DNA of 64,000 bases from Candidatus Multivoradales bacterium (lineage in GTDB: Bacteria; Acidobacteriota; Thermoanaerobaculia; Multivoradales; JAHEKO01): assembly GCA_965223875.1 (NCBI GenBank), contig OZ245024.1, positions 236,015-300,014 on the forward strand, in the 5' to 3' direction. A program made the position numbers and the translations under genes. The notes beneath the pieces were generated by a model that searched no databases, had not been told where the DNA came from, and worked only from the letters and a program-made list of their open reading frames with translations. How positions within the stretch are numbered: the first letter of the stretch is position 1; each line of letters starts with the position of its first letter. Shown here piece by piece: positions 3,354-54,905 of this stretch.

Positions 3354-4477
3354 TCAGCCGCCCAGGGGACTCGCCAGAAAGGCCTCGAGATGCGCCGCGA
3401 TCGAGCTCACCGGGAGGGATCTGATTTCGACGCGGCCGAGGTCGACGGGCAGCACCCAGTACAGTCCGTCGCGGCGGGCCTTCTTGTCGTGACGTAGAGC
3501 CTCGACCAGATCGGCGACGTCGAGTTTTGGTAGTGCCGGTAGATCGAGCCGCGAGAGCAGCGTCCGGCACCGCTCGGCGAAGCGTGGATCGCCACCATGG
3601 TCGGCCGCCAGACGCAGGGCGAAGAGGAGTCCATAGGCGACCGCTTCGCCGTGCCGCAGCTGGTGATAGCCGAGGGCTGTCTCGATCGCGTGCCCCAGGG
3701 TGTGCCCGAGGTTGAGGACTCTGCGCGAGTCGCCCTCGGTGGGATCGGCCTCGACGATGCGCTGCTTGGCGGCGATTGCCGCTCCTATCAGACGGTCGAC
3801 GCGCCGATCGCCCGCCGCCGCCGCGTTGGGCGTAAAGGCGTCGAGGTCGGTCTCCAACCATTCGAAGAGCGGCGGATCGGCCGCCGCCGCGATCTTGACG
3901 ACCTCCACCATCCCCGAGCGCCACTCGCCGGCATCGAGCGTTCCCAGGGCCCGGGTCTCGGCGACGACGAAGGCGGGATGCCAGAAGGCGCCGACGCAGT
4001 TCTTGGCCGCGGGAAGGTCGATCGCCGTCTTGCCGCCGATGGCGGCATCGACCTGGGCGAGCAGCGTCGTCGGCAGCAGGGCCAGCTCGATGCCGCGCAG
4101 GAAGGTCGCCGCGACGAATCCGGCGACGTCACTGCTGCTGCCGCCGCCGGCCGCGATGACCCGGCTGTCACGAGTACCGCCGGCCGCCAGCATCGCCGAC
4201 CAGAGTGACTCCGCACAGGACAGGCTCTTGGCCTCCTCGCCGTCGGGGACCGGGAGGCGTGAGACACGAGCCCCCGAGTCGTCGATCCTGTCCAGGAGCG
4301 GGGCGTGGATCGCTTCCAGCCCCTCCGGATGGACGAGGAACACCGTGCGGCCGCGAGCCCAGTCGCCGAGCGCCGGCGCGGCCCGCTCCAGGGCCTGCGA
4401 GCCGACGAAGATTCGGGTCTCCCCGGCCTGGTGCCGCAGCGTCAGGTCGGCTTCGGCCCTGGTCCCCTCGCCGGGGC

Positions 4478-21562: not shown

Positions 21563-21638
21563 GCCGACGTAGCTCAGCTGGTAGAGCAGCTCACTCGTAA
21601 TGAGCAGGTCAGCGGTTCGAGTCCGCTCGTCGGCTCCA
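21563..21638 (+). tRNA. tRNA-Thr (anticodon CGT)
   Basis: Cloverleaf: acceptor stem GCCGACG/CGTCGGC, D arm GCTC-AGCTGGTA-GAGC, anticodon stem GCTCA/TGAGC with loop CTCGTAA, T arm AGCGG-TTCGAGT-CCGCT, encoded CCA. Confidence 0.85.
21589..21638 (+). repeat. attL (3' 50 nt of tRNA-Thr)
   Basis: Identical to 30186..30235. Confidence 0.8.
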
Positions 21639-38026: not shown

Positions 38027-39109
38027 TCACGGGGCCCGGCCGGGATCGAGGACGAAGAAGTCGTAGACGGCGCGGGCGATTTCGGCGATCACCGGCTCCA
38101 TCGCTTCGTTGCTGGGGAGCTCGGACTCCTTGATGAAGACGACACACACGACATGCCCGGCGTCCCCCGGCAGTTCGATGATTCCGACGTCGTTGGTGGT
38201 CTGGCCGATCGTCCCGGTCTTGTGCGCCACCCGCGTGCCGGCCGGAAGGGCTCCCTTGAGGCGAGCTTCGCCGGTGCGGCAGCGATACATGATGTCGAGG
38301 AGGAGTCGCGAGCTCTCGGACGAGAGGATCTCCTCGGCCCAGATGCCCCGCAACAGGTCCAGCATCGCCTCGGGGGTCGCCGTGTCCCGCGGGTCCGCGT
38401 TGAACGCCCGGTTGAGTGAGGCGACCTCGTCGGTGGCCAGGCCGCTCAGCCGTCCGGCGTCGACGAGGTCGTCGAACTCCGCCGGCGGTACCGTAGCCTC
38501 TCCGTTGGAGCGGGCCCTACCCAGCCAATTGGCGATGATCCAGCGCGTCGTCCGGTCGACCCGGATGCCGTCGACACCCGAAGCGACCATCCGGGCGGTG
38601 ACCACCTCGCCTCCACCGGCGACCTCGAACAGCAGATCGGTGGCGATGTTGTCGCTCGCGCGCAGCATCAGCTCGAGGAGGTTGCGGATGGTCAGTTGCG
38701 CCCCGGGGATGAAGAGGTAGTCCCGGATCGGTCCGTGGGTGTCGACGATGTCGTCGGTTTCGATGGTCACGAGGTCGTCGAGACCCAGCGTGCGCGCGTC
38801 GACTCGCGACAGAACCTCCACGGCGATGGGGACCTTGTAGGTACTCGCCATCGGAAAGGCGATTCCCGCCTCCAGGACCAGCGAGCGTCCGCTCTCGAGG
38901 TGATGCACGCCCACTCCGACGACGCCGGCCGCCGGCTCCGCGAGGCGCTCGATCTCGGCCGCTAGCCGACTCAGACCCGGATCGTCCGGCGGCGCCAGGT
39001 GGGTGGACCCGGAGATCCCCGGAGCCCCGGAGGCGAGGGAAACGAGGAGCGGCAGCGCGCAGAGACAGCCGATGAGGATGGGTGCGAGCGCAGGGCGGCG
39101 AGCCGTCAT
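38027..39109 (-). CDS. class A beta-lactamase-like serine hydrolase
   Basis: SxxK (MASTYK), SDN (RASDNIA) and KTG (HKTGTIG) motifs. Signal peptide at the moved start (MTARRPALAPILIGCLCALP). Confidence 0.75.
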   Translation of the reverse strand: MTARRPALAPILIGCLCALPLLVSLASGAPGISGSTHLAPPDDPGLSRLAAEIERLAEPAAGVVGVGVHHLESGRSLVLEAGIAFPMASTYKVPIAVEVLSRVDARTLGLDDLVTIETDDIVDTHGPIRDYLFIPGAQLTIRNLLELMLRASDNIATDLLFEVAGGGEVVTARMVASGVDGIRVDRTTRWIIANWLGRARSNGEATVPPAEFDDLVDAGRLSGLATDEVASLNRAFNADPRDTATPEAMLDLLRGIWAEEILSSESSRLLLDIMYRCRTGEARLKGALPAGTRVAHKTGTIGQTTNDVGIIELPGDAGHVVCVVFIKESELPSNEAMEPVIAEIARAVYDFFVLDPGRAP

Positions 39110-39134
39110 CGCGGTGTCCGACAGAGGCGCGGAC

Positions 39135-39620
39135 TCAGCGGGACGATTCGCGCGCCGGCAGGTCGATCTCGGCGCCGGTGCCGTAGAGCTGGACGATTCG
39201 GTAGGGCCCGTCGCCGATGGTCTCCGGGTCGAAGTCGCGACCCTCCTCGTCGGCGACATGGCGCATCCAGGCGACGTAGCGGTCCCGCTCCATGTCGATG
39301 ATCTGGACCTTGCCCTCGGCCGTGGCATCGTGTCCGATAGCTCGGTCCGGGAAGACGATCACGCCGTCGTCGACCTTGACCCGGAGCGAGGTGCCGTCGG
39401 CCGCTTCCAGGTCCATCCAGCAGCCCTGCATCGAGCAGACCCCGTCGACCGTGCCTTCGACCCTCACGGTGCGGCCCTTCCAGGCGTCGGGGTCGGCGAC
39501 GATAGAGGCGATCTCGGTCGTCTCGAGATCGGGATCGAGAGGTTCTCCGAAGGTCGATGTCTCGGCGTAGGCGACAGTGGTCAGGAGGGCGGCGAGCAGG
39601 AAGATCGTGGTCGGTCTCAT
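39135..39620 (-). CDS. DUF4920-family secreted protein
   Basis: Signal peptide and the conserved CSMQGCWMDL motif. Confidence 0.6.
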   Translation of the reverse strand: MRPTTIFLLAALLTTVAYAETSTFGEPLDPDLETTEIASIVADPDAWKGRTVRVEGTVDGVCSMQGCWMDLEAADGTSLRVKVDDGVIVFPDRAIGHDATAEGKVQIIDMERDRYVAWMRHVADEEGRDFDPETIGDGPYRIVQLYGTGAEIDLPARESSR

Positions 39621-39895: not shown

Positions 39896-40756
39896 ATGAC
39901 AGCGGGTGTGGATCGTGTGACCGTCGAGTCGGCCGACGCGACACGGATTCACGTCTCGGTCTTTCCGGCCATCCACCCGGTCGCGGCCCTCGTCGTCGCG
40001 CATGGGCTCAAGGGCCATGCCGGGTGGCTCGAGGCGTCCGGAACGGGACACTACCTGGCGGAGAAGGGGATCGTCACCTTCGCCTACGATCGCCGCGGCT
40101 CAGGGCGCAGCGCGGGCGAGAGAGGTCATACCGATCGCCGTCGCTTCTTCTTCGACGACCTGCGCTCGATCCGGAGCCTGGTCACCACCGAGCTGGTGGG
40201 GCGCCGGAGCGCCGAGGCCCCCGTTCACCTTCTCGCCCACTGCTTCGGAGCCCGGATCGCCTTGCCCTATGCCCACCGGCACCCGAAGGACTTCCAGTCG
40301 TTGCTGCTGGCCTCGCCGGCCACCCACATGCAAAAGAGCCGGGACTGGGGACTGCTCGATCGGATCAGGATCCTGACCGCTCCGTCGAGTCGCCGCTTCG
40401 AGATCCCCATCGGTGACGAGGACTTCGTCGCCGACGGCGTCTGGCTGGACTGGGTCCGGCGCGACCACCGGACGCTGCGGGCCTGCACGGCGGGCTTTCT
40501 GCGATCGGCCTCGGCGCTGGTCCCGGAGATGAACACGGCGATCGGTGAGCTCGAGCACCCTCTGCTCCTGCTCACCGCGTCGGAGGATCGTCAGGTGCGA
40601 AACGATGAGATCGAGCGGGCGTTCTCCAGTCGCTACAAGGGGCCGTTGCGGCACGTCGAGCTGCCGGGAGACCATCAGGTGGACTTCACCGGCTCGCAGG
40701 AGGCCTATCGCCGGGCTCTCGTCGAGTGGATTCTCGGTGGCTGGAATGCTCCCTGA
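39896..40756 (+). CDS. alpha/beta hydrolase (lysophospholipase-like) with Cys at the nucleophile-elbow position
   Basis: HG oxyanion motif VVAHGLKGHAGW. Elbow LLAHCFGARIAL (Sm-x-Cys-x-Sm) in place of the usual GxSxG. Start moved to MTAGVD. Confidence 0.65.
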   Translation: MTAGVDRVTVESADATRIHVSVFPAIHPVAALVVAHGLKGHAGWLEASGTGHYLAEKGIVTFAYDRRGSGRSAGERGHTDRRRFFFDDLRSIRSLVTTELVGRRSAEAPVHLLAHCFGARIALPYAHRHPKDFQSLLLASPATHMQKSRDWGLLDRIRILTAPSSRRFEIPIGDEDFVADGVWLDWVRRDHRTLRACTAGFLRSASALVPEMNTAIGELEHPLLLLTASEDRQVRNDEIERAFSSRYKGPLRHVELPGDHQVDFTGSQEAYRRALVEWILGGWNAP

Positions 40757-41369
40757 GTCGCGCCAGCGACGGGGTCGGCGTCGGGACGTCGCCGGCAACG
40801 TCGCAGGGGCCATCGTCCTGCTCCTCGTCCTCGCCTCCTGTGAGGGCCGGCCGAGCGACGGGACCGAGGCTCCGGGGGCGACCTCGGAGTCGCACCGGTC
40901 GCCCGCTACCGAAGCCGAGCTGTCGACGATGACCTTCGTTGGAGTCGGAGAGGACCCGGTCACCCTCGTCGACGGCCACTGGGAAGGCGAGCCCTTCGTC
41001 GAGGGCGGCGCCTCCCGGCCGATGGTCGGCCTCTCGGACTTCCGGCTCTTCGGCGACGTCGACGACGACGGCGACGACGAGGCGATCGTCGTTCTGTGGA
41101 CGACCTCGGGCGGCTCCGGAACCTTCGACTACCTGGCCGTGGTGGACCGGCGTCCGGCAGGCACGCTCAACCTGGCGACCGCGGAGTTGGGAGACCGGGT
41201 GAAGCTCCGCGACGCCCGGGTGACCGACGGACGTATCGTCCTCGAGACGCTCGAGGCGGGTCCTGGTGACGCCATGTGCTGCCCCGGCCAAAGACGCAGG
41301 CGTACCTGGGAGCTACGCGGCGAGGAGCTGGTCGAGGTGGCGAACGAGGACCTGGGGCGTGAGGACTAG
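40749..41369 (+). CDS. hypothetical lipoprotein
   Basis: Lipobox LLVLASCEG. Acidic repeat-containing periplasmic protein. Confidence 0.45.
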   Translation, partial: LPESRQRRGRRRDVAGNVAGAIVLLLVLASCEGRPSDGTEAPGATSESHRSPATEAELSTMTFVGVGEDPVTLVDGHWEGEPFVEGGASRPMVGLSDFRLFGDVDDDGDDEAIVVLWTTSGGSGTFDYLAVVDRRPAGTLNLATAELGDRVKLRDARVTDGRIVLETLEAGPGDAMCCPGQRRRRTWELRGEELVEVANEDLGRED

Positions 41370-41401
41370 TGGTGGCTCGCCAGGGGGCGTGAAGGCTCGG
41401 C

Positions 41402-42583
41402 TCAGGTGCTCTTCCACCACCAGCGGGGCGCGTTTCTCGAGCCGCCATCGAGAAGTTCGTCGATCCTGAGCATCAGTCGTCGCAGGAGACTCCCCATCAG
41501 ACGGAAGCGGATCCTCTCGATCCATCGCGGATGGTCTCGGTTGTAGGGACAGACACGAATGCAGATCGAGCAGTCGGTCATCTGGGTGACCCAGAAGCCG
41601 AAGCACTTCTCCGCGTCCGTCGTCCACTTCTCCACTCCGGTGACGTTGGAGGTGTTGTGGATCTCCTCGCTGGGCGCCGTTCCGGCGATGGCGCTCGGCG
41701 GGCACTCGTCGGTACAGCGCCGGCAGATCTCGCAGAACTCCCTGACTCCGAAGCGGATCGGCTGGTCGTGCGCCAGCGGGAGGTCGGTGAAGATCTTGCC
41801 GATGCGCAGCCGCGGGCCCATCCCGGGTGCGATGAGCAGGCCGTGGCGGCCGTACTCGCCGAGCCCGGCCTTGATGGCGTAGGGAATGCTCGGGCCGGTG
41901 TCGTTCATGCTGGCGTAGGCGCGGTAGCCGAGGTTGCGAATGTACTGGGCGAGCGCCAGGAGCGTCACCACGTCCATCGAGTACCCGACGCCGGTCGCTG
42001 TACCGCTCAGGGCCGACGGGACCGTCTTGAGCAGGTCGTGGTCCATCTCGTGACAGACGACGATGACCGAGGTCAGATCATCGCCGAGGTCCATCGGGAT
42101 CTCGGCGTCCCTGGAGCGGCTGTAGCTGTGCGAGTAGACCCAGCGCTCGTCGTAGTAGGTGATCCCCACCAGGTCGGCTCCGAAGAGGCGGGCGGCCTTC
42201 TTGATCTCGTGCGACATCACCTTCGGGTCCTCGACCACGCAGCGCTCCCGGGCGCCGACGCGATGGGCCGTGAGGTAGTCGAGGAAGCCCTCGCGTCGAT
42301 CGTCTTCCTCGAGACGTTCGGCGAAGAAGTCGGCGACGTGCCAGCCGGCATTGCGCAGGGCGAAGTCCTTCTGCGCGTAGCCGTCGACCAGGCGCCACTC
42401 GCGTAGCGGTCGCCTGTAGGACTCGTAGAAACGCTCGGCCGCCGGAGTGTGGATCTCCTCGTCCCAGAACGAGCGGCAGAAGATGTCCCTCTTCTGGCTG
42501 AATCGGGAGTAGCGCTCGCTCACCCGGAAACCGGCGTCGGCATCCGAACCGCAACCACCTTCGCAGGTCGTACAGCGGCTCAT
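41402..42583 (-). CDS. reductive dehalogenase / QueG-superfamily (cobalamin-type) double 4Fe-4S protein, cytoplasmic form
   Basis: Two C-terminal ferredoxin motifs: CEICRRCTDECP (Cx2Cx2Cx3CP) and CSICIRVCP (Cx2Cx3CP). There is no Tat signal. The start ATG overlaps the stop of the upstream DltD-like gene (ATGA). Confidence 0.45.
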   Translation of the reverse strand: MSRCTTCEGGCGSDADAGFRVSERYSRFSQKRDIFCRSFWDEEIHTPAAERFYESYRRPLREWRLVDGYAQKDFALRNAGWHVADFFAERLEEDDRREGFLDYLTAHRVGARERCVVEDPKVMSHEIKKAARLFGADLVGITYYDERWVYSHSYSRSRDAEIPMDLGDDLTSVIVVCHEMDHDLLKTVPSALSGTATGVGYSMDVVTLLALAQYIRNLGYRAYASMNDTGPSIPYAIKAGLGEYGRHGLLIAPGMGPRLRIGKIFTDLPLAHDQPIRFGVREFCEICRRCTDECPPSAIAGTAPSEEIHNTSNVTGVEKWTTDAEKCFGFWVTQMTDCSICIRVCPYNRDHPRWIERIRFRLMGSLLRRLMLRIDELLDGGSRNAPRWWWKST

Positions 42584-43777: not shown

Positions 43778-44025
43778 TCAGCACCCGCCGGCCGTGGAGG
43801 ATTTCGCGTCGACGAAGCGTAGGATCCGCGCGACGCTGTCGAGATTCTCCAGCTGGACGTCCATCGCACCGACCTTGATCCCCTCGGTCGACTCGATGAA
43901 GTTGATGAGCTCGACCATGCTGAACGAGTCCAGAAGCCCGTCGGAGAAGAGAGGAGCGTCGTCGTCGAGCCCGTCGGCCTCGATGCCGAAGCGCTCGGAA
44001 AGATACCGACGGAGCTCGTCTCGCG
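43778..44025 (-). CDS. acyl/D-alanyl carrier protein (DltC-like)
   Basis: 82 aa. Phosphopantetheine-attachment motif LFSDGLLDSFSMVELINFIE. Confidence 0.7.
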
Positions 44026-44031
44026 TCAGGG

Positions 44032-45591
44032 TCATCCGGGGCTTTCGGGCTCTTCGGGGCTCTCGTCGTCCGTCTCCTGACCCCCTCGGAAGGCACGAAT
44101 CACCGCCTTGCGATCGAGCTTGCCGCTCGCCGTGCGCGGCATCCGCCCGGGCCATGGATGAAGCTCGGGAATCATATAGGCGGGCATCCGTCGCCTGCAA
44201 AAGGACGACAGGGCCTTCATGTCGAGCCCTCCCTCCTCCACTTCGACGGCCAGGTGCACCCGCTGTCCGAGCCTGGCGTCATCGACGCCGAAGGCGATCG
44301 CGCCGTCGACGAGCCGGCTGGAATAGGCGATCTCCTCGATCTCGGTGGGACTCATCCGGTAGCCGCTCGACTTGATCATCTCGTCACGTCGCCCTTCGAA
44401 CCAGAGACACCCGTCTTCGTCGCAACGCACGAGATCTCCGCTGTGGACGACCGGACGATCGCCGATCAGCTCCCGGAGGTGCTCGCTGGGTCGGATGCGC
44501 TCGGCGGTCGCTTCGGGAGCGTTCCAGTAGCCGCGCGACACCAGCTTGCCTGCGTGCAGCAGCTCGCCGACCTCGCCCGTCGCACAGAGGCCCCGATCCG
44601 GATCGACGACGTAGATCTGGACGCCGGGAACCGGCCAGCCGATGGCGCCGGTCTTGTCGGCGAAGCGGTCCGGCGGCAGGCTGGTCGATCGGAACGACTC
44701 GGTCAGGCCGTACATCAGGTGGATCGACGTCCCGGGGAAGATCCGGGGCATCCTGGCCAGGGTCGTGTCGGGGATCTTGCCTCCCGTGTTGGTCAGGTAG
44801 CGCAGCGATCCCAGTCGCTCACCGGATTCCTCGAGGTAGCGCACGAGCTCGATCCAGCTGGGCGGCACCAGCGCCAGGCCGGTCACGTCGTGCGATCGAA
44901 CGGTCCGGACGATCTCGGACGGAAACGGCGTCCTCTGCAGGACCAGGGTGCCGCCCGCATGGAGCATCGTGGCCAGTTGATTCAGGCCGTAGTCGAAGCT
45001 CATCGGAAGAAGGCCGAGGATCCGGTCCTCCGGCGCATTGCCGAGATATCCGGCAACGATCTCGGCTCCGTCGACGATGTTGCGATGGGTCAGCATGACG
45101 CCCCTCGGCGAGCCGGTCGACCCCGAGGTGTAGAGCAGCGCGGCCAGATCATCGGGACCCGGGAGCGTCCTCTCGGACGGGCGGTCGTCCGGCAGGGAGC
45201 TCCAGTCCAGGCCCCGTGCCGGATCGACGGCGACGAGCGGGCAGCCCAGTGAGGCCAGTCGCCCGGCCCCGCGGGCGTCGGTGAAGAGCATCGAAAGCTC
45301 GCAGTCCCGGTGGGCATGTGCGACCTGGTGCCGCGTCCAGGCGGGACTGAGGTTGACGAAGACCGCCCCGAGGCGCGCCGCGGCGAGGGTGATGACGGCC
45401 TCGTCGAGGCACTTCGGAAGGTGGATGCCGAGCCGATCCCCGGCTCCGACGCCCTCGTCAGCGAGCCACGAGGCGAGCACCTCGGCCCGATGGTGGAGCT
45501 CGCCATAGGTCAGCGACTCGCGCCCGTCGACCAGGACTGGATGATCGCCGCGGCCAGGGAGCTTCGAGGAGAGCAGTCCGAAGAGAGTCAT
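44032..45591 (-). CDS. AMP-dependent adenylating ligase (DltA-like carrier-protein ligase)
   Basis: A3 core motif LYTSGSTGSPRGV, then YGLTE, GELLHAGKLVSRGYW and the C-terminal PRTASGKLDRKA. The start at 45591 overlaps the MBOAT stop (ATGA). Confidence 0.8.
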   Translation of the reverse strand: MTLFGLLSSKLPGRGDHPVLVDGRESLTYGELHHRAEVLASWLADEGVGAGDRLGIHLPKCLDEAVITLAAARLGAVFVNLSPAWTRHQVAHAHRDCELSMLFTDARGAGRLASLGCPLVAVDPARGLDWSSLPDDRPSERTLPGPDDLAALLYTSGSTGSPRGVMLTHRNIVDGAEIVAGYLGNAPEDRILGLLPMSFDYGLNQLATMLHAGGTLVLQRTPFPSEIVRTVRSHDVTGLALVPPSWIELVRYLEESGERLGSLRYLTNTGGKIPDTTLARMPRIFPGTSIHLMYGLTESFRSTSLPPDRFADKTGAIGWPVPGVQIYVVDPDRGLCATGEVGELLHAGKLVSRGYWNAPEATAERIRPSEHLRELIGDRPVVHSGDLVRCDEDGCLWFEGRRDEMIKSSGYRMSPTEIEEIAYSSRLVDGAIAFGVDDARLGQRVHLAVEVEEGGLDMKALSSFCRRRMPAYMIPELHPWPGRMPRTASGKLDRKAVIRAFRGGQETDDESPEEPESPG

Positions 45592-46833: not shown

Positions 46834-46965
46834 TCAGAATCCCTGGTAGCGGAAGATCCGTATCCCGGACTCGAGGGTGAGCAGGTTCACCAGTGCCCAG
46901 GTGAGCAGGGTGCCGAGCACGAGGCCCTGAAGAAGGGCGCCGAGAAGGTGCCAGGAACGCTTCAT
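46834..46965 (-). CDS. DltX-like micropeptide (43 aa), not in the ORF track
   Basis: MKRSWHLLGALLQGLVLGTLLTWALVNLLTLESGIRIFRYQGF has a single TM helix and a C-terminal F-x-Y-x-x-F motif, as in Gram-positive DltX. Its ATG overlaps the stop of the upstream gene (ATGA). It lies 37 nt upstream of the MBOAT gene. Confidence 0.55.
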   Translation of the reverse strand: MKRSWHLLGALLQGLVLGTLLTWALVNLLTLESGIRIFRYQGF

Positions 46966-48056
46966 CTCCCGCCCTCCCCCGCATCCAGGAGGTCACCCGT
47001 TCGCAGTCCGAGGACGCGGGTGAAGCGGCGCATCGCCGGCCAGCGGTAGAGGTGGTTGAGGTCGTAGAAGTCCTCCTGCGCCAGGGCAGCCTCCCTCTGC
47101 GGGTTCCAGTAGTGTGCGTCGTTGGCCCGGGCGAATGCCGCCAGGCGACTCCGGTGCCGGTCGAGGAAGGCCTCGCCATACACCTCGGCCGTGGCGCGCG
47201 GTGATAGAGGCGACTCGAACAACACCACCTCGACCGCTCCGCGCTCCTTCAGCTCGGCGATGATGGCTTCGATCGTCCGCAGACAGGCGGCGACGTTGGT
47301 CTCGTAGTCGGTCTCGATGCGCTCTCTGAGCCGCGGCGCGACGTCGTCGAAGACGCCAGGGGGCATCGGCCGCTTGCGCCGCAGGAAGGGATGGACATCC
47401 GGGCTCACCGGACCGTTGGCGAGGTTGCGCGCCAGGTGGGTCATCCGGGGCAGGAAGAAGTGGCGGTTGGCCCAGAAATAGTTGCCCGATTCCCGTTCGA
47501 AGGCCATGCCGAGCGATCCGGGGTCACCGAGCTCCCGGGCCTCGGCGAGCATGCCCGGGCGAACACCGGGGCCGAGTGCCATGCTCGACGGCGTCAGACC
47601 GAGTAGCACGACACCCTCGAACCGCTCGGGAAGGCGCTCGACGATCGAGAGGCTGCCCTCGAGAGACTGCCCCCAACTCGCCAGGTTCCAGACGCTGGGT
47701 TCGGCCCCGCTCGAAGTCGCCACGACCCGGCGCAGCGACGCGGAGCTGGTGATCGCCTCGGTCACCGCCGAGCCACCGAGCACGACGACCACCGGCCGCC
47801 GCGGCGTGACCCGCGACACGGCGGCGAGGCGGGCGGTCAGGAAAAGATCCCCGTCGGATCCGTCGCGCGCGAAGTAGCGGTGCGCTTCGGAGGCGAGGAG
47901 AGCCGGGGTGATCAGCGCCATGCAGAGGCCGAGCGCGACGAGGGGTAGCGCCAGGGTCAGGGCGAGCGCGCCGGCTGACGGCTGCGTAAGACCACGGATG
48001 AAGGCGCGCCGGGCCGAGTCAGAACCGTCGGGCGGCTCCGGATCAGGGCGGCGCAT
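46962..48056 (-). CDS. membrane-anchored extracytoplasmic protein, possibly a divergent SGNH/AlgX-like esterase; first gene of the Dlt-like operon
   Basis: N-terminal TM (ALALTLALPLVALGLCMALI). VVVLGGSAV could be a degenerate GDS block. Translationally coupled to the DltX-like ORF. Confidence 0.45.
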   Translation of the reverse strand: MRRPDPEPPDGSDSARRAFIRGLTQPSAGALALTLALPLVALGLCMALITPALLASEAHRYFARDGSDGDLFLTARLAAVSRVTPRRPVVVVLGGSAVTEAITSSASLRRVVATSSGAEPSVWNLASWGQSLEGSLSIVERLPERFEGVVLLGLTPSSMALGPGVRPGMLAEARELGDPGSLGMAFERESGNYFWANRHFFLPRMTHLARNLANGPVSPDVHPFLRRKRPMPPGVFDDVAPRLRERIETDYETNVAACLRTIEAIIAELKERGAVEVVLFESPLSPRATAEVYGEAFLDRHRSRLAAFARANDAHYWNPQREAALAQEDFYDLNHLYRWPAMRRFTRVLGLRTGDLLDAGEGGR

Positions 48057-48104: not shown

Positions 48105-50156
48105 ATGAGCGCGCAGAGGGTCATGGACGAGCTCGCTTCCTATCTGCCGCTCCTGGTCGCGGTCGTCGCCCTGGTGTTCCTGCAGCGGACGCGTTTCTGG
48201 GGCGCTGTGCTAGCCCAATTCGGTCAGCTCGCCGCGCGGCGGAGGCTGGCGGTCCTTCTCGTGGGTGCTGTCGCGACGGTTCATTTCGCGGCTCTGGCTC
48301 TCTATCACTGGCCGCTGCCGATCTATGCCGACGAATTCAGCTATCTCCTGATGGCGGACACCTTCTCCGAAGGCCGCCTGACCAACCCGACGCCCCCCCT
48401 CCCCTACCTGCTCTGGGCACCCGACGTCATCTTCGAGCCCACCTACCAGTCGAAGTACCCGCCGGCCCAGGGGGTCGCGCTCGCCCTGGGCGGTCTGCTC
48501 GGTGATCCCCTGGTCGGAGTCTGGCTGAGCATGGCGGCGGCGGCCGCGGCGACCTGCTGGATGATGCAGGCCTGGCTGACGCCCCGCTGGGCGCTCGTCG
48601 GCGGACTTCTCGTCGCCACCCACAAGGCGATCGGCACCTTCTGGGGAGCGACCTACTTCGGCGGCGCGATGGCGATGCTCGGCGGCGCCCTCCTCTTCGG
48701 CGGTCTGCCGCGACTCTTCCGCCGGCAGAGCATCGGCCCAGCACCGGCGATCGGCTCAGCACCGGCGATCGGCCCGGCACTGGCGATCGGCCCGGCGCTG
48801 GCGATTGGCACGGGCCTCGCCCTTCTCGCCAACAGCAGGCCGTTCGAGGGACTCGTGGCGAGCCTTCCGGCCGCCTTCGTGATGCTCGTCTGGCTGGTTC
48901 GCGAGCGACGCTTCGCTCGGGGCGTGGTCCTTCGCCGCGTGCTCGTGCCGATCGCTGTCGTCCTGGGACTGGTCGGGCTGGGGATGGGGACCTACCATCG
49001 AGCCGTCACCGGGAATCCGCTGCGAATGCCCTACCAGGTGTTTCTCGAGAGCAGCAACGTCGCCAACGTCGCGCTGCCGGGCGAGCCCCAGGCGCGCAAG
49101 GCGGCGGAGCCTCCGGCTCTCGTCGAGCGACACTTCAAGTTCTTCACTCTCGGCGGTGATCCACACCTGTGGCTGCCGTTGCTGCTTCTACCGCTCGTCG
49201 TTCGGCGCGACCGGTGGATGCAGCTCGCCCTGGTGACGACTCTGCTCACCTACCTGGCCGTCTGGTTCACCGTTCTCGCCTCGGCGCACTACGCGGCGCC
49301 GGTGACCGCCCTGGTCTTCACTCTCTACCTTCAGAGCGTCCGTCACCTCCGCGTACTCCTGCGCCGTTGGCGGCTCGCCTTCCAGGTCTTCGTCGCCGTC
49401 TTTCTGACCTTCTGGGCACTGCAACTGTACGACTCGCCACGATTCCACGCGACGAAGATCCCTCCCGGGCACACCCACGAGTTCGCCCTTCTGCGCGCGG
49501 AGATCAACGAGGAGCTCTCTGAGCGTGGCGGCAGGCATCTCGTGGTGGTGCCCTGGGACAACGTGACGCCGCGGGTTCTCGCCTGGGTCCACAATCCTCC
49601 CGTTCCCGAACAAGCGGAGATCCTCTGGGCCTGGGAGGGGCCCGGACTGGCCGAGCGGTTCGGCGTTCGCACGGTGTGGCGGCTCGACGAGACCTCCTGG
49701 CCCCCCACCCTCGTTCCCTCCTCTAGCTCCCGGACCGCCTGGATCCTGCGCGGAGGCGGCGCACAGTCGACCCTGACGGTCGACGACGAGCGGGCGGTCG
49801 CGGTCGCAATCGGCGCCGCGGGCCCGGAGGCCCCGCCGGCCCGCCTCGTGCACGGACACCCCCCGCTACGAACCGGCGTACGTTACAGGATCGCATTCCG
49901 CGTGCGCTCGGACAGCGCGCGATCGATCGAGGTCCGGGTCGCGCGCGGCGACGGCCGAGAGCTCGGCGACGTTCGCTACCGACAGCACGAGCAGGTGGGG
50001 GTCGACTGGAAGGAGGTCGTCCTCGCCTTCGAGTCCGATCGCTTCCTCGAGCATGCCGCGGTCGAGATCGATCTCGGGAGCGGCGCCGGCAGGATCGAGA
50101 TCGAGGGATTCTCGATTCGCCCGGGCGATACGGCCGGCACCGAATCCGCTATCTGA
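48105..50156 (+). CDS. GT-C-like polytopic membrane protein (putative glycan/lipid-linked sugar transferase) with a C-terminal CBM-like beta-sandwich domain
   Basis: About 12 TM helices. An acidic DEFSY motif in the first extracytoplasmic loop, as in GT-C enzymes (ArnT/PMT DE motifs), and the conserved EPTYQSKYPPAQG. The C-terminal domain is soluble (RYRIAFRVRSD..IEVRV..IEIEGFSIRP). It has a paralog at 60608..62632. Confidence 0.5.
   Translation: MSAQRVMDELASYLPLLVAVVALVFLQRTRFWGAVLAQFGQLAARRRLAVLLVGAVATVHFAALALYHWPLPIYADEFSYLLMADTFSEGRLTNPTPPLPYLLWAPDVIFEPTYQSKYPPAQGVALALGGLLGDPLVGVWLSMAAAAAATCWMMQAWLTPRWALVGGLLVATHKAIGTFWGATYFGGAMAMLGGALLFGGLPRLFRRQSIGPAPAIGSAPAIGPALAIGPALAIGTGLALLANSRPFEGLVASLPAAFVMLVWLVRERRFARGVVLRRVLVPIAVVLGLVGLGMGTYHRAVTGNPLRMPYQVFLESSNVANVALPGEPQARKAAEPPALVERHFKFFTLGGDPHLWLPLLLLPLVVRRDRWMQLALVTTLLTYLAVWFTVLASAHYAAPVTALVFTLYLQSVRHLRVLLRRWRLAFQVFVAVFLTFWALQLYDSPRFHATKIPPGHTHEFALLRAEINEELSERGGRHLVVVPWDNVTPRVLAWVHNPPVPEQAEILWAWEGPGLAERFGVRTVWRLDETSWPPTLVPSSSSRTAWILRGGGAQSTLTVDDERAVAVAIGAAGPEAPPARLVHGHPPLRTGVRYRIAFRVRSDSARSIEVRVARGDGRELGDVRYRQHEQVGVDWKEVVLAFESDRFLEHAAVEIDLGSGAGRIEIEGFSIRPGDTAGTESAI
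48748..48819 (+). repeat. in-frame 18-nt x4 tandem repeat ((A/S)P(A/L)AIG) inside the GT-C-like gene
   Basis: ccagcaccggcgatcggc / tcagcaccggcgatcggc / ccggcactggcgatcggc / ccggcgctggcgattggc. The paralog at 60608..62632 lacks it. Confidence 0.7.
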
Positions 50157-52277: not shown

Positions 52278-54905
52278 CTAGTACCCGGTGGGCTGACGGA
52301 GCTTGCGAACGATCAGCGCGACGGCGACCAGCAGGATGGGCAGGTAGAGCAGCCCGAGAGGCCCTGCGAGAGCGCCCAGCAGGTCGCCCACCTTGTCTCC
52401 GGCGGAGAGATCCGAGCGAACGATGGCGCCCAACGCGATGAGCGCGTCGACCGGATTCCAGCTCTTCGCCGCCCGGACGACCTCCTTCATCGCTTCGGGG
52501 GTGCCGAAGCCTCCGAGAGCCCGAACGGCGCTGCGACGGGCCTCGCCCTCGCCCCAGCGGGCAATCGACGACAGCGGCTCCACAGCGCGCTCGTCACCCG
52601 TCGCGACCAGGGCGGCGCAGGTCTCGCGGGAGCCGGCGACGCAATCGAGGACGAGGGACCCGAGGGGCTCACCGAAGGCGTCGAGGGCCTTGCGGGCCTC
52701 TGCCACGACCTCCGGGTCGGTATCGTCCATCGCGCCGACGAGCGCGTCGATCGCCTCTTGGCCTCCGATGACCGACAGAGCCCAGACGGCGGCCAGGCGG
52801 ACATCGACGTCGCGATCGCGCAGTCGTCGCGCGAGCACGGGCAGGGATTCCTCGGCTCTCAGCCGGCCCAGCGCCCAGGTGGAGGCCATGCGGACTCGGT
52901 CCACGGGGTCGGTCAGCAGCTCGGTCAGTCGCGCGGTGGCCCGATCGTCCCGGTTGCGCCCCACGTACCAGGCGCCGATCTCGCGCATCCTGGCCTCGCG
53001 ATCCTGCAGGGTACCGAGCAGGACGTCGTCGACCTCGGGTCCGCCGATCGATGCGAGCGCCTCGGCCGCCGCGATGCGGACACCGACCCGGACATCGTGG
53101 ACGTTCTCGAGCAGCGGACCGATCGACGTATCGTCTCCCACCCTCGCGAGGGTGGCCAGAGCGGTGAGTCGGATGCGCAGATCGGTCTCCTCGAGCGCCT
53201 CGTTCATCAGGGAGGTCGTCACCGGAGGACCGATCATGGCGAGAGCTCGAAGGGCCGAGCGGCGGGTTTGGATGTGGCTCTCCCGGTAGGCGTCGATCAG
53301 CGGCTTGATGGTTCGAGCCTGGTGCCGCGAGGCGAGAGCCATGATCGCCGCATCGTTGCCGTCGAGGGCGAGGAAGATGCGCCGGCCCACCGGATCCTCG
53401 AGGGCCGCGAGCGCGCGGGCGATCGTCTCCCGCGCACCAGCGTCGCGATCCCCCATCGCCCGGACCAGTGCCGCGATGGCGCTCTTGTCGCCGATCGCTC
53501 CGAGGGCCGTGGCCACGGCTTCGCGAACCCCCGGATCGGGGTCGTCCAGCGCCTCGATCAGCGGCTCGACCGCCCGCGGGTCTTCGAGGGCGCCGAGAGC
53601 CGCGGCGGCCGATGTCCGCACGACCACATCCTCGTTGCGGAGCAGGACGAGAAGGTCGGAGATCGACTCGGTCTCGCCGAGCTGGCCCAGGGCCGCCGCG
53701 GTGTGGATCTTGTTCTCGGTCCGCAGATCGTCCAGATCGTCCTTGAGGTTGGCCAGGAATCGCTCGCGATCGATCGCCTCGAGGGCCGCCGTGACGGTGG
53801 GACGCTCCTCGGAGGAACCGTTCCAGAAAGCCTCCATCAGAGGTTCGAAGGTCACCGGATCCGCACGAACGCGAAGGGTCTGGGCCGCGGCGATGCGGAC
53901 GCGCGGACTGATGTCGTCCAAAGTGTCGAGGATCGGTCGTAGGACCCGGGGGTCGTCGACCTCGGCGACCCTCGCCATGGCCTCTTCATCGCCATCCAGG
54001 GCGTCAGCGACCAGGCGACTCCAGGGAACTCCGAGATCCTCGAGGGAGATCGCGCAGCTGTGGCGCAGCCGTGGAACGGAATAGCCCATGCAGACGATCA
54101 GAGGGCGTACTGCCTCTTCCCCCTGCAGACGCGCCAGGCCGAGTGCGGCGGCGGCGCGGGCGTCGGGATCCTCCTCGTCATCGGCGAGAGTCTGGGCGAA
54201 GGGACCCGCGGCGCGGACGTAGCCACCGTCGACGATCTCTTCCAGGGCTTCATCCGAGCCGCGGAGAGCTTCCAGAATCAGACCGGCAACGGGAGCGCCG
54301 AGCCGGTCGAGGGCCTGGAGGGAGGCCTCTCGGACGACCCGACTCGGATCCGACGCCAGGTCGACGAGCTGTGGGATCGAGCCGTCGTCGCCGAGGCGCG
54401 CCAGAGCCTCGGCCGTTGCGGCTCGAACCGAGACCGCCGGATCGCCGAGCGCCACCGTGACGGGTCCGATGGCGCGTGGATCCCTGAGCAGGCCGAGGGT
54501 TCGGGCCGCCGCGGCGCGGACCTCGATGACCGGATGGTCGAGGGCGGTGACGAAAGCTGGAAGGACCTCCGGCGCGCCGAGCTCGGAGAGCTCGATCATC
54601 GACAGCAGCGAGCCCTGCAGGCACTCGCAGACCAGGCTCCCGAAGCCGACGCCACGGGTCGTCAGCTCGCGCGAGGCTTTCTGGCAGGCATCGTTCTCCG
54701 GTCCGCCGAGGGCGGCGATGAGCTCCCCGACGCTGACCTCCCCGACGCTGACCTCGTCGACGCTGGCCTCCTCCTGGGACCGGAGCGGCTCCTGCGAGCG
54801 GGTCGGCCAGGGTCCTACGAGCGCGAGAAGGAGCGTCGCCGCGGCGACCAGAAGGGGCGGACGATGGCGGGCGAAGTGGCCTGAGCGGTGTGCTTTCGAG
54901 CTCAT
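52278..54905 (-). CDS. HEAT-repeat (PBS-lyase-type) protein, 875 aa, with an N-terminal signal peptide and a C-terminal TM anchor
   Basis: More than 20 HEAT-like repeats (xVRxxAAxALGxLGDPRAVxPL). C-terminal LLYLPILLVAVALIV. The start overlaps the stop of the upstream GT4 gene (ATGA). Confidence 0.7.
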   Translation of the reverse strand: MSSKAHRSGHFARHRPPLLVAAATLLLALVGPWPTRSQEPLRSQEEASVDEVSVGEVSVGELIAALGGPENDACQKASRELTTRGVGFGSLVCECLQGSLLSMIELSELGAPEVLPAFVTALDHPVIEVRAAAARTLGLLRDPRAIGPVTVALGDPAVSVRAATAEALARLGDDGSIPQLVDLASDPSRVVREASLQALDRLGAPVAGLILEALRGSDEALEEIVDGGYVRAAGPFAQTLADDEEDPDARAAAALGLARLQGEEAVRPLIVCMGYSVPRLRHSCAISLEDLGVPWSRLVADALDGDEEAMARVAEVDDPRVLRPILDTLDDISPRVRIAAAQTLRVRADPVTFEPLMEAFWNGSSEERPTVTAALEAIDRERFLANLKDDLDDLRTENKIHTAAALGQLGETESISDLLVLLRNEDVVVRTSAAAALGALEDPRAVEPLIEALDDPDPGVREAVATALGAIGDKSAIAALVRAMGDRDAGARETIARALAALEDPVGRRIFLALDGNDAAIMALASRHQARTIKPLIDAYRESHIQTRRSALRALAMIGPPVTTSLMNEALEETDLRIRLTALATLARVGDDTSIGPLLENVHDVRVGVRIAAAEALASIGGPEVDDVLLGTLQDREARMREIGAWYVGRNRDDRATARLTELLTDPVDRVRMASTWALGRLRAEESLPVLARRLRDRDVDVRLAAVWALSVIGGQEAIDALVGAMDDTDPEVVAEARKALDAFGEPLGSLVLDCVAGSRETCAALVATGDERAVEPLSSIARWGEGEARRSAVRALGGFGTPEAMKEVVRAAKSWNPVDALIALGAIVRSDLSAGDKVGDLLGALAGPLGLLYLPILLVAVALIVRKLRQPTGY

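Follow-up and report, generated by a model that had tools for sequence, protein, structure and literature searches.

A 64,000-nt stretch of contig OZ245024.1 from Candidatus Multivoradales bacterium (hereafter, the window) encodes a 393-residue protein of the RdhA family of reductive dehalogenases. The gene lies immediately behind genes for an MBOAT, an AMP-forming ligase, an acyl/peptidyl carrier protein (ACP) and a membrane-anchored SGNH-fold protein, in that order and on the same strand, an arrangement reminiscent of the Dlt systems of envelope acylation. We conclude that this is probably a stand-alone cytoplasmic RdhA, placed behind the Dlt-like operon through lineage-specific gene order, and not a functional part of the acylation system. 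Coordinates of the features discussed are collected in Table 1.

A cytoplasmic RdhA-family protein, distinct from QueG

The first-pass annotation of this DNA had proposed a 393-residue open reading frame, giving no strand, and had placed its product in the RdhA/QueG superfamily. The frame was borne out, on the minus strand, and the family assignment holds for RdhA but not for QueG. Against profile models, the protein scored 186.4 bits with the NCBIfam reductive dehalogenase model TIGR02486 (cutoff 160.35). The Pfam model Fer4_16 was also above its cutoff, and PF13486 (Dehalogenase) was marginally so (25.9 versus 24.3), matching residues 175–270 only. The QueG model TIGR00276 gave 57.2 bits versus a cutoff of 200, and matched residues 210–351 only. 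A phmmer search of the PDB placed PceA of Desulfitobacterium (8q4h, 3.7e-53) and PceA of Sulfurospirillum multivorans (4uqu, 3e-50) ahead of NpRdhA (5e-32), with QueG far behind (6e-13). We then compared folds, for which 53 relatives were used to build an AlphaFold2 model (pLDDT 84, pTM 0.89). Foldseek matched this model to PceA (8q4h_A) with an E value of 7e-27 and a TMq of 0.78, and to NpRdhA (4ras) with a TMq of 0.72, versus 0.32–0.39 for QueG structures. In the model, the corrinoid-binding core has the fold seen in PceA and NpRdhA. The QueG matches stop at about residue 351, so the HEAT-like C-terminal domain of QueG is absent, as had been noted earlier. QueG orthology was rejected on these scores, on the low fold overlap and on the missing domain. 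The protein is a genuine cytoplasmic member of the RdhA family.

Both [4Fe–4S] motifs claimed in the first-pass annotation were found in the C-terminal third of the protein: Cx2Cx2Cx3CP, as CEICRRCTDECP, and Cx2Cx3CP. The former pattern occurs a single time in the six frames of the window. The earlier statement that the protein is cytoplasmic and has no Tat signal was likewise upheld, with no RR motif among residues 1–40 and no apparent transmembrane helix (maximum 19-residue Kyte–Doolittle mean of 1.18 over the whole protein). HMMER alignments against the PDB gave equivalents of the active-site Tyr, Asn and Arg residues (Table 1), and aligned Trp331 with Arg552 of NpRdhA. The alignment of 53 sequences shows no variation at Tyr201, Asn227, Arg260 or Trp331, nor at any of the eight cluster cysteines. 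The window RdhA has Arg in place of NpRdhA Lys488 and Trp in place of NpRdhA Arg552, which indicates that the active site is PceA-like. As predicted from these aligned residues, the protein combines a PceA-like active site with a minimal cytoplasmic architecture.

How does the window RdhA compare with characterized types? Respiratory PceA (8q4h, 4uqu) is the best match in both sequence and fold. It shares with the window protein both Fe–S motifs, the residues equivalent to Tyr246, Asn272 and Arg305 and, as modelled, the same single corrinoid-binding core. Yet identity to PceA is only 25–27%, and the window RdhA is ∼70–110 residues shorter, with neither a Tat signal nor a gene for an RdhB anchor. 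It also lacks any hydrophobic segment, and the neighbours of its gene are the SGNH gene on the upstream side and, downstream, a convergent lipoprotein gene. Unlike PceA, the window RdhA is cytoplasmic and hence uncoupled from any quinol-dependent respiratory complex.

NpRdhA (4ras/6zy1) and BhbA are, like the window RdhA, cytoplasmic and Tat-less. The core fold is held in common with NpRdhA, and the equivalent of NpRdhA Tyr426 is kept. Unlike NpRdhA, however, the window protein has no vestigial N-terminal second cobalamin-binding domain, and only residues 347–614 of NpRdhA align. At 393 residues, it also lacks the fused NAD(P)H–ferredoxin reductase of the self-sufficient NpRdhA/BhbA type. QueG (5d08, 5d6s) belongs to the same superfamily and resembles what is predicted for the window RdhA in having a corrinoid and two [4Fe–4S] clusters, a cytoplasmic location and a soluble electron donor, but the window protein has neither the DUF1730 nor the HEAT-like domain of QueG. 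A 2025 survey describes a 'simplified cytosolic type' of RdhA that averages 395 residues and has no vestigial cobalamin domain; most of the reported examples are from cold-seep Desulfobacterota and Chloroflexota (PMC12219181). By length and architecture the window RdhA fits this type and may belong to it, membership being defined phylogenetically.

Gene order around RdhA and SGNH relatives

We found 4205 relatives of the window RdhA at E≤1e-5 among the candidates scored. In the protein collection, the window protein (P0241) is filed in a 90% cluster (P0241/P0242) represented by a 56-residue fragment. Because the full-length protein is hidden behind this representative, the best match returned by the homology search was only 82% identical. 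To survey neighbourhoods, we took the 80 genome loci of the closest relatives (56–78% identity), with up to 10 kb of flanking DNA on each side. These loci come from Acidobacteriota, Marinimicrobia, Gemmatimonadota/Longimicrobiales, Chloroflexota, Binatia and others, and several members of the clade are from metagenome-assembled genomes (MAGs) labelled marine. Searches of the 80 loci by tblastn with the window MBOAT, ACP and SGNH proteins returned nothing. The window ligase gave a single weak match (23% identity), downstream of RdhA in locus L020. Three metagenomic relatives of 79–81% identity (L081, L083 and L169) have no Dlt-like neighbours either. Overall, an MBOAT, ACP or SGNH gene lies within 10 kb of RdhA in 0 of 84 loci (56–81% identity). 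When all neighbouring open reading frames of the 84 loci were clustered, no partner proved to be kept across phyla, and only lineage-specific synteny was evident, such as an ABC transporter in 20 loci. The RdhA clade is thus large and well conserved (56–82% identity), and its members are normally stand-alone genes in varying contexts.

The closest relatives have neighbours of other kinds. RdhA directly follows a 1-Cys peroxiredoxin gene in L083 (7400–8071) and OsmC and MOSC genes in L169 (562–1672), and it stands alone beside a DinB-family gene in L081 (9408–9914). These three loci hint at a setting of detoxification or oxidative stress. Some genomes hold several copies, with three in a Marinacidobacterales genome (OZ250169.1; L007, L008 and L028). 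Two of these, at 7.87 Mb (L007) and 3.35 Mb (L008), are identical in their upstream sequence and at their N-termini, a pattern suggestive of recent segmental duplication; the third is more divergent.

The N-terminus of the window RdhA carries a Cx2Cx3C triad, at the place where respiratory RdhAs have their Tat signal. The triad was found in 18 of the 19 loci of at least 63% identity (L001–L018, L026) and was absent from relatives of 56–61%, so that it marks the ≥63% subclade. It is usually followed by x2-D, with the consensus C-T-T-C-x-x-G-C-A-T-D, and could form an extra metal or cluster site. For the simplified cytosolic type, the portion of the survey considered here makes no mention of such a triad (PMC12219181).

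We similarly analyzed the SGNH gene, taking 85 loci of relatives (35–70% identity): 80 came from a metagenome scan (35–46%), and five closer relatives were retrieved by exact look-up. None of the 85 encodes RdhA, and 50 of them extend at least 1.5 kb downstream. An MBOAT gene lies upstream of the SGNH gene in one of the 35 loci with enough upstream sequence, and a ligase gene lies downstream in two loci. The ligase–ACP–MBOAT arrangement is therefore rare for this SGNH family. The family itself (L084–L168) is unnamed and has no Pfam model; it comes mostly from soil and sediment metagenomes (Acidobacteriota, Nitrospira, Planctomycetota) and occurs in very variable contexts. We also considered a habitual pairing of the SGNH family with cobalamin enzymes, since a B12-binding radical SAM gene lies near it in L164 and L166. 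Such neighbours were seen in only 4 of the 85 loci, one of them adjacent, and the idea was rejected.

The two closest SGNH relatives, L167 (66%) and L168 (70%), are the decisive cases for this junction. Directly after the SGNH gene, each has a convergent orthologue (∼60% identity) of the alpha/beta hydrolase that lies beyond RdhA in the window. The hydrolase C-termini correspond (...GGWSAP and ...GGWAAP, versus ...GGWNAP in the window). The stop codons of the two genes overlap by 4 nt in L167 and are 20 nt apart in L168, versus 1.82 kb in the window. The window interval holds RdhA and a small lipoprotein-like gene that has no Pfam match, and both are missing from the L167 and L168 junctions. 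The closest hydrolase relative (L171, 75%) has the hydrolase gene followed by a homologue of the lipoprotein gene (54%; 3404–4030). This homologue reads past the stop of the window copy (...EDLGRMSIADLEGIEWRLVAFDR...), and so the latter may be truncated at its C-terminus. The 3′ end of the lipoprotein gene, 32 nt from the 3′ end of RdhA, is a candidate rearrangement breakpoint. These data show that the interval between the SGNH and hydrolase genes is a variable spot, and that RdhA lies outside the conserved core on either side. The preference for gain in the window lineage, rather than loss in L167 and L168, is one of parsimony.

Between 40.4 and 43.0 kb, a search for insertion scars revealed only short direct and inverted repeats at chance level, and no insertion sequence or integrase. 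The GC content of RdhA is 65.3%, versus 63–70% for its neighbours, and its GC3 of 0.88 is similar to that of the operon. Because its composition resembles that of its neighbours, it is uninformative about recent transfer. An Rfam scan of the window found no cobalamin riboswitch, and the only match was one tRNA (21563–21635, plus strand).

The first-pass annotation was correct that the RdhA start codon overlaps the stop of the SGNH gene: the ATG (42583–42581) and the TGA (42582–42580) share bases as ATGA. Equivalent overlaps are present at the MBOAT/ligase and ligase/ACP junctions. A promoter and terminator scan of the operon yielded no signal in excess of that expected from shuffled sequence. 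RdhA is probably co-transcribed with the acylation operon, as judged from the ATGA overlap and from the absence of terminator-like sites. Such co-transcription would be a by-product of where RdhA landed and not a functional tie.

Architecture of the acylation operon

The operon is set among glycosyltransferase genes. Its ligase is nearest to the model for exosortase-A-associated acyl-CoA ligase (TIGR03098), and no DltA model was among its top 25 matches. The carrier protein is matched best, though weakly, by a model for the ornithine-lipid ACP (OlsHI). By simple orthology, D-alanine is therefore unlikely to be the transferred group. The SGNH protein had no match in Pfam, including DltD, and none in the PDB by sequence or profile search, so its assignment required structure prediction and a fold search. 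The model (pLDDT 93) has an N-terminal transmembrane helix (residues 2–32) followed by an SGNH fold, and the family motifs GDS, GxND and DxxH are present. TesA and GDSL esterases were the best fold matches, with DltD (3bma, 6o93) ranking 26 and 32 at a TM of 0.35. Hence the earlier description of this gene as DltD-like stands for its membrane helix and SGNH fold but not for any closer kinship with DltD.

The same is true of the operon as a whole, which had been called Dlt-like. None of its four proteins reached the Dlt equivalog cutoffs. It does contain an MBOAT together with a membrane-anchored, predicted extracytoplasmic SGNH-fold partner. In its ligase, carrier, MBOAT and membrane-anchored SGNH logic it resembles DltABCD and other MBOAT–SGNH acylation systems (PMC12148441, PMC11035591). 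'Dlt-like' is thus right as a description of architecture, namely an MBOAT–SGNH acylation system supplied by a ligase together with a carrier protein (cf. PMC12148441), and not as a statement of orthology.

Two genes without Pfam or NCBIfam matches flank the start of the operon: one for a 364-residue protein with a single N-terminal hydrophobic segment (46962–48056, minus strand) and one for a 683-residue multi-pass membrane protein (48105–50156, plus strand). Both are kept beside the MBOAT gene in L170, where the MBOAT and the 364-residue protein are at least 90% identical to those of the window. Farther along, between GT4 and GT2 genes, lies a gene for an 875-residue protein made up almost entirely of HEAT repeats, with 14 HEAT_2 stretches (52278–54905, minus strand). 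This placement between glycosyltransferase genes is also kept in L170. On the other side of RdhA, the window contains a class-A-type beta-lactamase-family gene (38027–39328, minus strand; Beta-lactamase2, 6e-47), whose maximal open reading frame has an apparent N-terminal extension of ∼130 residues. Its true start is probably internal.

Table 1. Features of the RdhA gene, the Dlt-like operon and the interval downstream (window coordinates)
Feature	Position	Strand	Remarks
RdhA-family gene, 393 aa (P0241)	41402..42583	-	predicted cytoplasmic corrinoid / 2x[4Fe-4S] reductase
N-terminal Cx2Cx3C triad, C4, C7, C11 (CTTCEGGC)	42551..42574	-	
Tyr201	41981..41983	-	aligns with PceA Tyr246 and NpRdhA Tyr426 (catalytic proton donor)
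Asn227	41903..41905	-	aligns with PceA Asn272
Arg260	41804..41806	-	aligns with PceA Arg305 and NpRdhA Lys488
First [4Fe-4S] motif, CEICRRCTDECP, residues 284-295	41699..41734	-	
Second [4Fe-4S] motif, C327 and CSICIRVCP (residues 338-346)	41546..41605	-	
ATGA start/stop overlap, SGNH gene/RdhA gene	42580..42583	-	
MBOAT, 402 aa	45588..46796	-	PF03062 3.4e-19; DltB TIGR04091 181 bits versus cutoff 375
AMP-forming ligase, 519 aa	44032..45591	-	best model TIGR03098, 486 bits versus cutoff 592; ATGA overlaps at both ends
Acyl/peptidyl carrier protein, 85 aa, PP-binding	43778..44035	-	DltC 27 versus cutoff 68
'DltD-like' membrane-anchored SGNH-fold protein, 392 aa	42580..43758	-	identical to P0121
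Alpha/beta hydrolase (Hydrolase_4), 286 aa (P0248)	39896..40756	+	synteny anchor common to L167, L168 and L171
Small lipoprotein-like gene, 207 aa	40746..41369	+	lipobox LLVLASC; convergent on RdhA, 32-nt gap
Variable interval, hydrolase stop to SGNH stop, 1.82 kb	40757..42579	.	absent in L167 and L168

Probable role and competing explanations

We infer corrinoid binding, the electron donor, dehalogenase activity and the substrate of the window RdhA. By analogy with PceA, NpRdhA and QueG, a soluble low-potential donor (ferredoxin or flavodoxin) would reduce the distal and then the proximal [4Fe–4S] cluster. The clusters would reduce a base-off corrinoid, and the reduced corrinoid would attack the carbon–halogen bond of the bound substrate. 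As in PceA, the proton would come from Tyr201, and Arg260 and Asn227 would assist. The lack of a Tat signal, of an RdhB anchor and of a fused NAD(P)H reductase points to a non-respiratory role, either detoxifying or catabolic. This role is probably the detoxification or catabolism of natural organohalogens; among the relatives, several are from MAGs with a marine label.

Several observations weigh against a dehalogenase that is merely lodged at the end of the operon. The ATGA overlap, with no promoter- or terminator-like signals, makes co-expression probable, and lineage-specific functional co-option is possible. Identities of 56–82% across phyla are unusually high for RdhAs, and could mean that the substrate is conserved and non-classical. 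RdhA sequence models give only a weak match to the N-terminal ∼170 residues. Moreover, the contigs of the nearest relatives stop short of the junction: that of L171 breaks off within the lipoprotein gene, and that of L170 (38.9 kb), the one relative of the operon with at least 90% identity, breaks off within the ligase gene. The contigs of L167 and L168 are short and begin partway through the SGNH gene, so that any ligase, ACP and MBOAT genes would lie beyond their ends.

Some of these points bear on what the enzyme does. We tentatively propose, while thinking it rather unlikely, that the ≥63% subclade forms a distinct, cross-phylum group of cytoplasmic corrinoid reductases (Acidobacteriota, Marinimicrobia and allied MAGs, several of them marine). 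The group would be marked by an N-terminal Cx2Cx3C(x2)D, with the triad as an extra metal or electron-entry site, and would act on a conserved natural metabolite, be it an organohalogen or a non-halogenated compound. A weaker variant of this proposal has the gene co-opted into the acylation operon in this lineage.

Another alternative, which we consider unlikely, is that the clade consists not of dehalogenases but of corrinoid/Fe–S reductases of a conserved non-halogenated or natural metabolite, with the triad of the ≥63% subclade again providing an extra metal site. The analogy is with QueG, in which the same scaffold serves for the reduction of an epoxide. The high identity, which extends over at least six phyla, would fit such a role, as would the triad, the divergence of the N-terminal 170 residues from RdhA models, the stand-alone gene with no conserved partner, and the position of the closest relatives directly downstream of peroxiredoxin or OsmC and MOSC genes. 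Yet the PceA-type Tyr, Arg and Asn and the Trp at the NpRdhA Arg552 position are invariant, and the reductive dehalogenase model is matched above its cutoff. The presence of several copies in some genomes is typical of catabolic or detoxifying families and not of housekeeping ones.

Other points bear on where the gene lies. Could the RdhA-like enzyme be a functional part of the Dlt-like system? The first-pass annotation had suggested a reductive modification of the acyl donor or substrate, or a regulatory link, and in its present form the idea would have the enzyme change the acyl donor or the acylated substrate reductively, or report redox or B12 status. We regard this as very improbable. The overlap with the SGNH gene does match those within the operon, no internal promoter-like or terminator-like site was found, and GC and GC3 resemble those of the operon. 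But, apart from the one weak ligase-like match, the pairing is absent from all 84 RdhA and all 85 SGNH loci, and RdhA is missing at the syntenic junction in L167 and L168, which is the outcome that had been named in advance as counting against a link. In addition, RdhA is cytoplasmic whereas its SGNH partner acts outside the membrane. Among the papers listed by a literature search, none joined RdhA terms with envelope acylation terms, and we know of no MBOAT–SGNH envelope acylation system that includes RdhA. Finally, QueG orthology, for which the JGI label 'epoxyqueuosine reductase' on some relatives and the common ferredoxin-like region might speak, has a negligible probability given the TIGR00276 score, the short matched region, the fold comparison and the absent HEAT-like domain.

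We thus favour a stand-alone RdhA placed by lineage-specific gene order. Were functional coupling true, it would be the first link between corrinoid-dependent reductive chemistry and the acylation of envelope polymers. The ordinary explanation is instead that a mobile, stand-alone RdhA gene came to lie in the variable interval behind the operon, and the case is an example of how a start/stop overlap alone is no proof of functional coupling. Beyond this locus, the analysis draws attention to a clade of Tat-less, ∼395-residue RdhA homologues that is large, unusually conserved and biochemically uncharacterised. Its members are carried by MAGs from several phyla, and several of these MAGs bear a marine label.

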